Assembly (NCBI GenBank): GCA_951406725.2 | Contig: OX597832.1 | Location: forward strand, 42,408,001-42,472,000 | Direction of reading: 5' to 3' | Source: Octopus vulgaris | Lineage: Eukaryota | Length of the DNA: 64,000 nt | Shown here: positions 1,849 through 2,192 of the stretch, one piece after another | Layout: every line of letters begins with the position of its first letter | Position numbering within the stretch: the stretch's first letter is position 1 | Notes under the pieces: model-generated | What the model was told of the DNA's origin: nothing | The model's database searches: none | Seen by the model: the letters and a program-made list of their open reading frames with translations, nothing else | Made by a program: the position numbers and the translations under genes

Positions 1849-2192
1849 AATCCTTTTCGGGTAAACCTTCAGTGAGATGCAGTGTCTAATGAAATGAAGC
1901 TGTTGCTTAGCTGTTATTCTTCTCAAGCAACAAGTAACGGCTGTCCTCAGAGTTTTGGTAGCCTGGCTCAAGCTTTCGGAATTACGGAGATGTACTCGCA
2001 TAGCAAGTAATTTGATCTGAGATCGTGTGCTGAAACGATAACAATTGCAGCGTGGAAGGTGTTTATAAGCCATTTAAGAAACACACAAAAGCCGTTCGAT
2101 TCACTTCAACATTCAAGTTTAATTTGTCAAAATATTTTCGTCGCTAAAATCCGCGACCTGTTCACTGACAAAGTCCGTGCTGCATCTCCATT
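1849..2192 (-). mobile_element. (TA)n-embedded element with hammerhead-like fold (family H2)
   Basis: Complex sequence bounded by (TA)n on both sides; minus strand 2172-2123 folds as TTTGTCA-GTGAACAG-GTCGC/GCGAC-GAAA-ATAT-TT-TGACAAA. Confidence 0.5.

Follow-up and report, generated by a model that had tools for sequence, protein, structure and literature searches.

A hammerhead-like motif with a swapped G3-C8 core pair in a Neptune-like Penelope element of Octopus vulgaris

The pair between core positions 3 and 8 is a tertiary contact of the hammerhead active site. Lünse, Weinberg and Breaker reportedly described in 2017 small hammerheads linked to Penelope-like elements (PLEs), with a reduced stem III and cleavage as dimers. 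Minimal type I hammerheads reside in the pLTRs of metazoan PLEs, and natural U3-A8 covariation is reported in the same paper (Cervera and de la Pena 2014, PMC4209133); the first natural covariation of the 3-8 pair was likewise U3-A8 (Perreault 2011, PMC3088659). An engineered C3G/G8C double mutant partly restores cleavage in a PLE hammerhead, for which the PLE protein is needed (Frangieh 2024, PMC11167929), is the one rescuing core double mutant in a full pairwise screen (Roberts 2023, PMC9901934), and is also covered in a review (PMC8495972). Two papers leave it open if the hammerheads of PLEs are cutters of RNA in vivo or passengers (PMC8557442, PMC11167929). In the literature searched, G3-C8 was found in laboratory mutants only and in no natural hammerhead; subscription papers lie largely outside that search, and a natural case may exist in print or supplements.

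Here we analysed a stretch of 64,000 nucleotides of Octopus vulgaris DNA (the window), in which a hammerhead-shaped motif with a GUGAACA core had been proposed from the letters alone. Sequence and fold place the motif on the minus strand where it had been claimed (Table 1). The 7-bp helix I, the 5-bp helix II, GAAA and the palindromic AATATT of the original prediction were all recovered from the sequence, and the (TA)n tracts that were said to bound the element were found on both sides. Compared with the type I core C3 U4 G5 A6 N7 G8 A9, the motif deviates by G3 and C8 and agrees at the other five positions. Its 3-8 pair is Watson-Crick (G-C). GAAA, U and U17 agree with G12 A13 A14 A15.1, U16.1 and H17, and helices I and II, G10.1-C11.1 and the extra base are all as in type I hammerheads.

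Table 1 Features of the motif, its carrier and a related copy in the window
Feature	Positions	Strand	Evidence
Family A fragment (Neptune-like Penelope element): motif-bearing 5′ UTR and first ~75 ORF codons	1847..2187	-	337/341 bases identical to full element in L032
Truncated start of retroelement ORF, ATG at 2073, running into TA tract	1843..2073	-	97% to L050 over residues 1-77
(TA)n target microsatellite, 3′ side of insertion	1660..1848	.	
Target microsatellite (TA)n 5′ of insertion	2194..2243	.	
Likely transcription start of element, 22 nt before G3	2187	-	5′ ends of copies, extra G
Junction: two G and 4-nt stub CAAT, putative start of inverted second copy primed at +124 site	2188..2193	-	Comparison with inverted pairs at other loci
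Minimal type I hammerhead-like motif, G3-C8 core	2123..2172	-	Sequence, descriptor match, fold
Helix I 5′ strand, pairs with 2123-2129	2166..2172	-	Pair probabilities 0.63-0.99, native 5′ RNA context
Core positions 3-9, GUGAACA (G3 = 2165, C8 = 2160)	2159..2165	-	Sequence; family state from genome counts
Extra G after position 9	2158..2158	-	Sequence; such an extra base is described in PMC4209133
Helix II (5 bp, G10.1-C11.1) and loop; strands 2157-2153 / 2144-2140	2140..2157	-	
GAAA (2139-2136) and palindromic AAUAUU (2136-2131), predicted dimer helix III	2131..2139	-	
U17	2130	-	
Helix I 3′ strand	2123-2129	-	
Predicted scissile bond, 3′ of U17	2129..2130	-	Hammerhead numbering
Decayed homologous motif of family C (U3·G8, C9), then ORF start	10752..10801	+	E 9e-6 with model R1 (built from families A/B/C, family C rows included); 69% DNA identity to family C

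When positions 3 and 8 are left free, the type I descriptor matches this motif alone in 64 kb. The background was gauged on 60 Markov-shuffled windows: under a loose descriptor the rate was 0.4 hits per window, and under a strict one, which asks for a Watson-Crick 3-8 pair, a helix I of at least 7 and a helix II of at least 5, it was 0. For the 50-mer the predicted folding energy is -14.7 kcal/mol (z -3.4); within native contexts of 207 and 341 nt, helices I and II form with probabilities of 0.63-1.0. No hammerhead family of Rfam matches at 2100-2190 (E<=10), and the Rfam scan of the whole window gave microRNA-like noise only among the 150 of 468 matches listed.

In the monomer the motif lacks helix III, its 2-nt loop being unable to close. 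AAUAUU is palindromic, and its duplex by itself is weak at -0.2 kcal/mol; the predicted homodimer is an extended duplex rather than a double hammerhead. The ground-state prediction pairs G3 with U17 and leaves a probability of 0.03 to the open hammerhead-like fold.

Between the two (TA)n tracts lie 341 bases that match a repeat family (family A). A whole element of this family, L032, has the motif at both ends as direct pLTRs (720, 4981), which are about 4.26 kb apart and enclose the ORF; a partial copy in inverted orientation lies upstream. The motif is also in both pLTRs of L033. The ORF starts with an ATG 92 nt after G3. In L070, a single open frame of 1025 codons contains RT motifs together with GIY-YIG at the C-terminus, and the GIY-YIG of the family A element matches Pfam above the cut-off. 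Both the CX2-5CxxC linker and the CCHH motif are present, and the pLTR direct repeats, the inverted truncated copy and the optional tail are those of EN+ PLEs. An EN protein search returned family A alone. Judged by these sequence features, the carrier is an EN+ Penelope-like element of Neptune/Nematis type (Neptune-like).

A non-LTR retrozyme, with tandem non-coding units each containing a hammerhead, was considered and rejected, as the window holds a single copy and ORF sequence is included in it. No second partner copy of the fragment was found within the window, and the window copy is solitary and probably inert. Six near-tandem family A motifs, 176-334 nt apart, lie on one strand of L052 (C28) at 1774-2852, with a G3·G8 copy on the other strand; dimers could form in cis in this array.

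Exact matches in the genome, counted with the helix II flanks held fixed, comprise 4,892 G3-C8, 162 G3·G8, 12 C3-N8 (all C3·C8) and 0 C3-G8 cores. When copies were chosen by a word at the ORF start with the core ignored (98 copies), G3-C8 occurs in 54 of the 61 that cover the core. By both counts, the helices and G3/C8 are kept across genomic copies, a question that had been raised together with the prediction. Most subfamily changes sit in the helix II loop, and in helix I an A-to-G substitution facing U, which keeps pairing, is found in 11/61 copies. The motif is present in runs from 11 studies. Contigs of 4/4 runs from four organisms, which may be close relatives, have no other letter at 3% or above at position 3 or 8, although old copies are often clipped at the core and one low-agreement loose-end consensus reads C3. 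A candidate A3-U8 family with the same helix II geometry was searched for with a narrow pattern and discarded; the 12 scattered matches are mostly decayed family A copies.

On contig C16, at ~1.7-10.6 Mb, long family A insertions with G3·G8 are clustered and share one loop type, while their ends and flanks differ. Their sequences indicate that this cluster is the local spread of a mismatched G3·G8 master by independent insertions. Because this lineage made independent long insertions, the 3-8 pair is dispensable for spread. A DNA tree was built from ORF pieces, 19 of family A and 3 of family B, one row of which (L257) has a false core label. It gathers the G3·G8 copies into a single clade of weak support (52) surrounded by old copies, and G3-C8 lies to either side of the root. 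G3·G8 tentatively looks derived relative to G3-C8.

Two related families, B and C, were found by a search with the N-terminus of the family A ORF. Both are RT-EN elements that have the motif just 5′ of the ORF, at the homologous site. Pattern matches number 4,028 for family B and 3,234 for family C; counted by eye among the matches listed, C3-G8 occurs in 96/100 of family B and U3-A8 in 84/100 of family C. Family B includes intact ORFs of 1312 codons (L069, L071), and the named homolog that comes closest, a protein of Octopus vulgaris, is almost identical to family B. The family B core is A9C (CUGAUGC) in 91/100 among the matches listed, with the canonical A9 in older copies. The three families have 49-55% protein identity and a tree of (A,(B,C)), in which B+C has a support of 100. 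From this tree and the three states of the 3-8 pair, at least two double changes would have occurred, each ending in a Watson-Crick pair.

Covariation was assessed with 11 hand-picked rows from the three families, in which the 3-8 pair is G-C in 4, C-G in 3, U-A in 3 and unpaired in 1. The covariation represents three lineages rather than thousands of events. In the same rows two helix II pairs are altered on both sides, and U4 G5 A6 and GAAA are invariant; across the families, the invariant positions are U4 G5 A6, G12 A13 A14 A15 and U16. On visual inspection, inner pairs of helix I shift in step between families A and B, as does the 15.2-16.2 pair. Family C helix I, which was misaligned by MAFFT and is a 3-bp helix in most loci, was excluded from the count. 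U17 is common to all three families. Single mismatches in family C rows are U3·G8 and C3·A8. Family C copies with an AAGAA loop have U3·G8 plus one C3-G8 among the matches listed, and such copies may mark a wobble route leading from C-G to U-A. The decayed window copy of family C belongs to this AAGAA-loop type.

The original prediction had read G3-C8 as a natural compensatory-core variant. The comparison supports that reading: G3-C8 is kept across copies, and because relatives have C3-G8 and U3-A8 together with compensatory helix changes, the swap is a natural compensatory change. The 3-8 pair is likely kept by selection, because related families use C-G and U-A at the homologous site. We consider it fairly probable that the motif is a hammerhead of the 5′ UTR/pLTR of a Neptune-like Penelope element in which G3-C8 is fixed, that it keeps the active fold, and that it cleaves after U17 in a manner predicted to be slow, dimer-only and probably protein-aided. 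That this is an active natural G3-C8 hammerhead, whose family swapped the active-site pair and yet kept cutting with the aid of a U17 background, is put forward more tentatively.

The contribution of U17 was considered from predicted pairing. The swap carries a predicted cost: the computed probability of a G3-N17 pair is 0.67 with U17 and 0.98 with C17. In line with this, Kalweit and Hammann mention, the data not being shown there, that G3-C8 is worse off with C17 than with G17 (PMC3884650). As strong pairing of G3 would be expected with C17, the common base, the U17 of all three families may have permitted the swap by making it tolerable, as a working hypothesis.

The ends of the 98 family A copies were used to consider how insertions arise. 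Their 3′ ends form two peaks 60 nt apart, with 40 at +119..128 and 55 at +178..186, and at 14/84 loci two copies lie on opposite strands, most with one end per peak. At the 5′ side, 37/98 copies end at -28..-19. An extra G precedes the -22 boundary in 28/43 short insertions versus 1/22 intact pLTRs, although some of these may derive from the inverted partner. If the extra G is a copied cap, the -22 boundary would be the transcription start. A 3′ splice site at this boundary was also considered: in L032, a branch-point-like ACTAAC, a pyrimidine tract and AG lie right before the common 5′ boundary (4959-4983). It is less favoured, as there is no common upstream exon, the AG is retained and the pLTR contains no GAG|GT donor. 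From these sequences we prefer a transcription start, and both may hold. The predicted cut, at +35..38, is the start of 0/98 copies, which argues that the templates were uncut RNA. The window copy extends to +318, unlike all 98 sampled copies.

A possible course is as follows. RNA would start ~15 nt before helix I, and two copies, whether on separate RNAs or as both pLTRs of a single transcript, would pair via the AAUAUU palindrome to form helix III. In the palindrome dimer of a master element, slow cleavage after U17 would occur, probably assisted by protein as is reported for other PLE motifs (PMC4209133, PMC11167929). The element protein would nick (TA)n and prime reverse transcription at +124 and +184 on uncut RNA, and such two-site priming could yield short insertions by the thousand, in many cases head-to-head. 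The window copy may be a product of such priming further in, at +318, with the 4-nt stub at its 5′ junction as a remnant of the second cDNA.

These copy ends also bear on whether the motif cuts at all. It could be hammerhead-derived and catalytically silent, its fold being a protein-binding, translation or promoter element in which the 3-8 pair serves shape only. Insertions copied from uncut RNA would be expected on this account, as would the spread of the G3·G8 lineage and the dominance of A9C in family B among the matches listed, and hammerhead mutants leave PLE insertion in vitro unaffected (PMC11167929). On the other hand, what varies in concert is an active-site tertiary contact, whose three Watson-Crick states fit selection on an active fold, and U4 G5 A6, G12 A13 A14 A15 and U16 are invariant at 49-55% protein identity. 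A silent fold is rated as less likely than the hammerhead reading, but as a real rival. The G3·G8 lineage and A9C in family B are among the signs that cleavage is weak or dispensable, so that not every round of spread depends on it.

Neutral drift is another course, by which G3 and then C8, or the reverse, became fixed by chance in a master element and their pairing is coincidental. Single-mismatch lineages did spread, with G3·G8 seen among family A copies and both U3·G8 and C3·A8 among those of family C, and copy number reflects a few masters rather than thousands of tests. Yet the dominant 3-8 state is Watson-Crick in all three families, and subfamily changes sit in loop II or preserve pairing, as with the A to G change opposite U, which makes drift quite improbable. 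A chance hairpin or an assembly error in a repeat-rich window, for which the loose-descriptor hits in shuffled windows and the lack of an Rfam hammerhead match might speak, is scarcely credible. It is refuted by the thousands of identical copies in the genome and by the cross-family covariation; moreover, the 60 shuffles contain no strict hit, two related families have a homologous motif, and runs of 11 studies carry the motif.

The original prediction had also named TTGAACA...GCCGAAAC at 12068-12100 as a related motif, which did not hold up. Its fold z is +1.2, the three-family model misses it, and it is part of a different repeat family, which numbers at least 40 copies and shows no similarity to family A. 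In this copy, TTGAACA overlaps ACAGU followed by C, which is able to pair with the strand that follows GAAAC; downstream, at 12122-12128, there is a canonical CUGAUGA. In the resulting arrangement at 12056-12128 (+), GAAAC is upstream of CUGAUGA and four helices are paired in 95% of cells; covariation in these helices was absent among 12 close copies. By its sequence, this segment is consistent with a strand-permuted hammerhead, as a lead only.

Other repeats were seen in the window. Decayed hammerhead-like remnants, each a short hairpin followed by GAAACG, occur in other repeat families at 1076-1100 (+), ~1574 (-) and 12370-12395 (+), and further ones at 13909 (+), 30025 (-) and 34407 (-). 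Long near-perfect inverted repeats at 3688-3893, 55790-55913 and 57445-57566, which gave false microRNA hits in the Rfam scan, are probably head-to-head retroelement fragments. An abundant 400-nt SINE-like repeat is at 2998-3389 and 22855-23256, with a dozen more copies.

If family A does carry an active G3-C8 hammerhead, G3-C8, C3-G8 and U3-A8 would constitute a compensatory series found in nature, whose mismatched intermediates the genome still contains. As there is no Rfam hit, thousands of motifs in a single genome escape standard searches, and a class of hammerheads would be invisible to CUGANGA descriptors and Rfam, so that ribozyme censuses and calls of 'hammerhead-less' PLEs would need revision. 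The G-C, C-G and U-A families with the G·G and A9C lineages would serve as a natural panel for selection on catalysis.

Compared with the hammerheads of PMC4209133, the family A motif has the same type I order, the extra base after position 9, G10.1-C11.1, a palindrome as candidate helix III, the place in the pLTR and many solo and opposite-strand pairs. It differs in the core: G3 is in 0/56 representatives in Fig. S3 of that paper (53 C3, 3 U3), and G3-C8 is not among the core variants considered from Perreault 2011 (PMC3088659). The swap is the same as the engineered C3G/G8C, for which single mutants are dead and the double is partly active (PMC11167929, PMC9901934, PMC8495972), but in family A it is natural, occurs in thousands of copies and has a U17 context. 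In an anole PLE, priming was measured at two internal sites (PMC11167929), which fit the two 3′ end peaks of family A. With EN+ PLEs of Neptune/Nematis type (Craig 2021, PMC8557442), family A shares RT, CX2-5CxxC, a C-terminal GIY-YIG with CCHH, pLTRs, the inverted truncated copy and (TA)n targeting. It differs from them by DKS in place of DKG, and its hammerhead motif would escape a CUGANGA descriptor. PLE pLTR hammerheads and natural U3-A8 are known; what is added here, with good comparative support at the sequence level, is a natural G3-C8 family with predicted cleavage.
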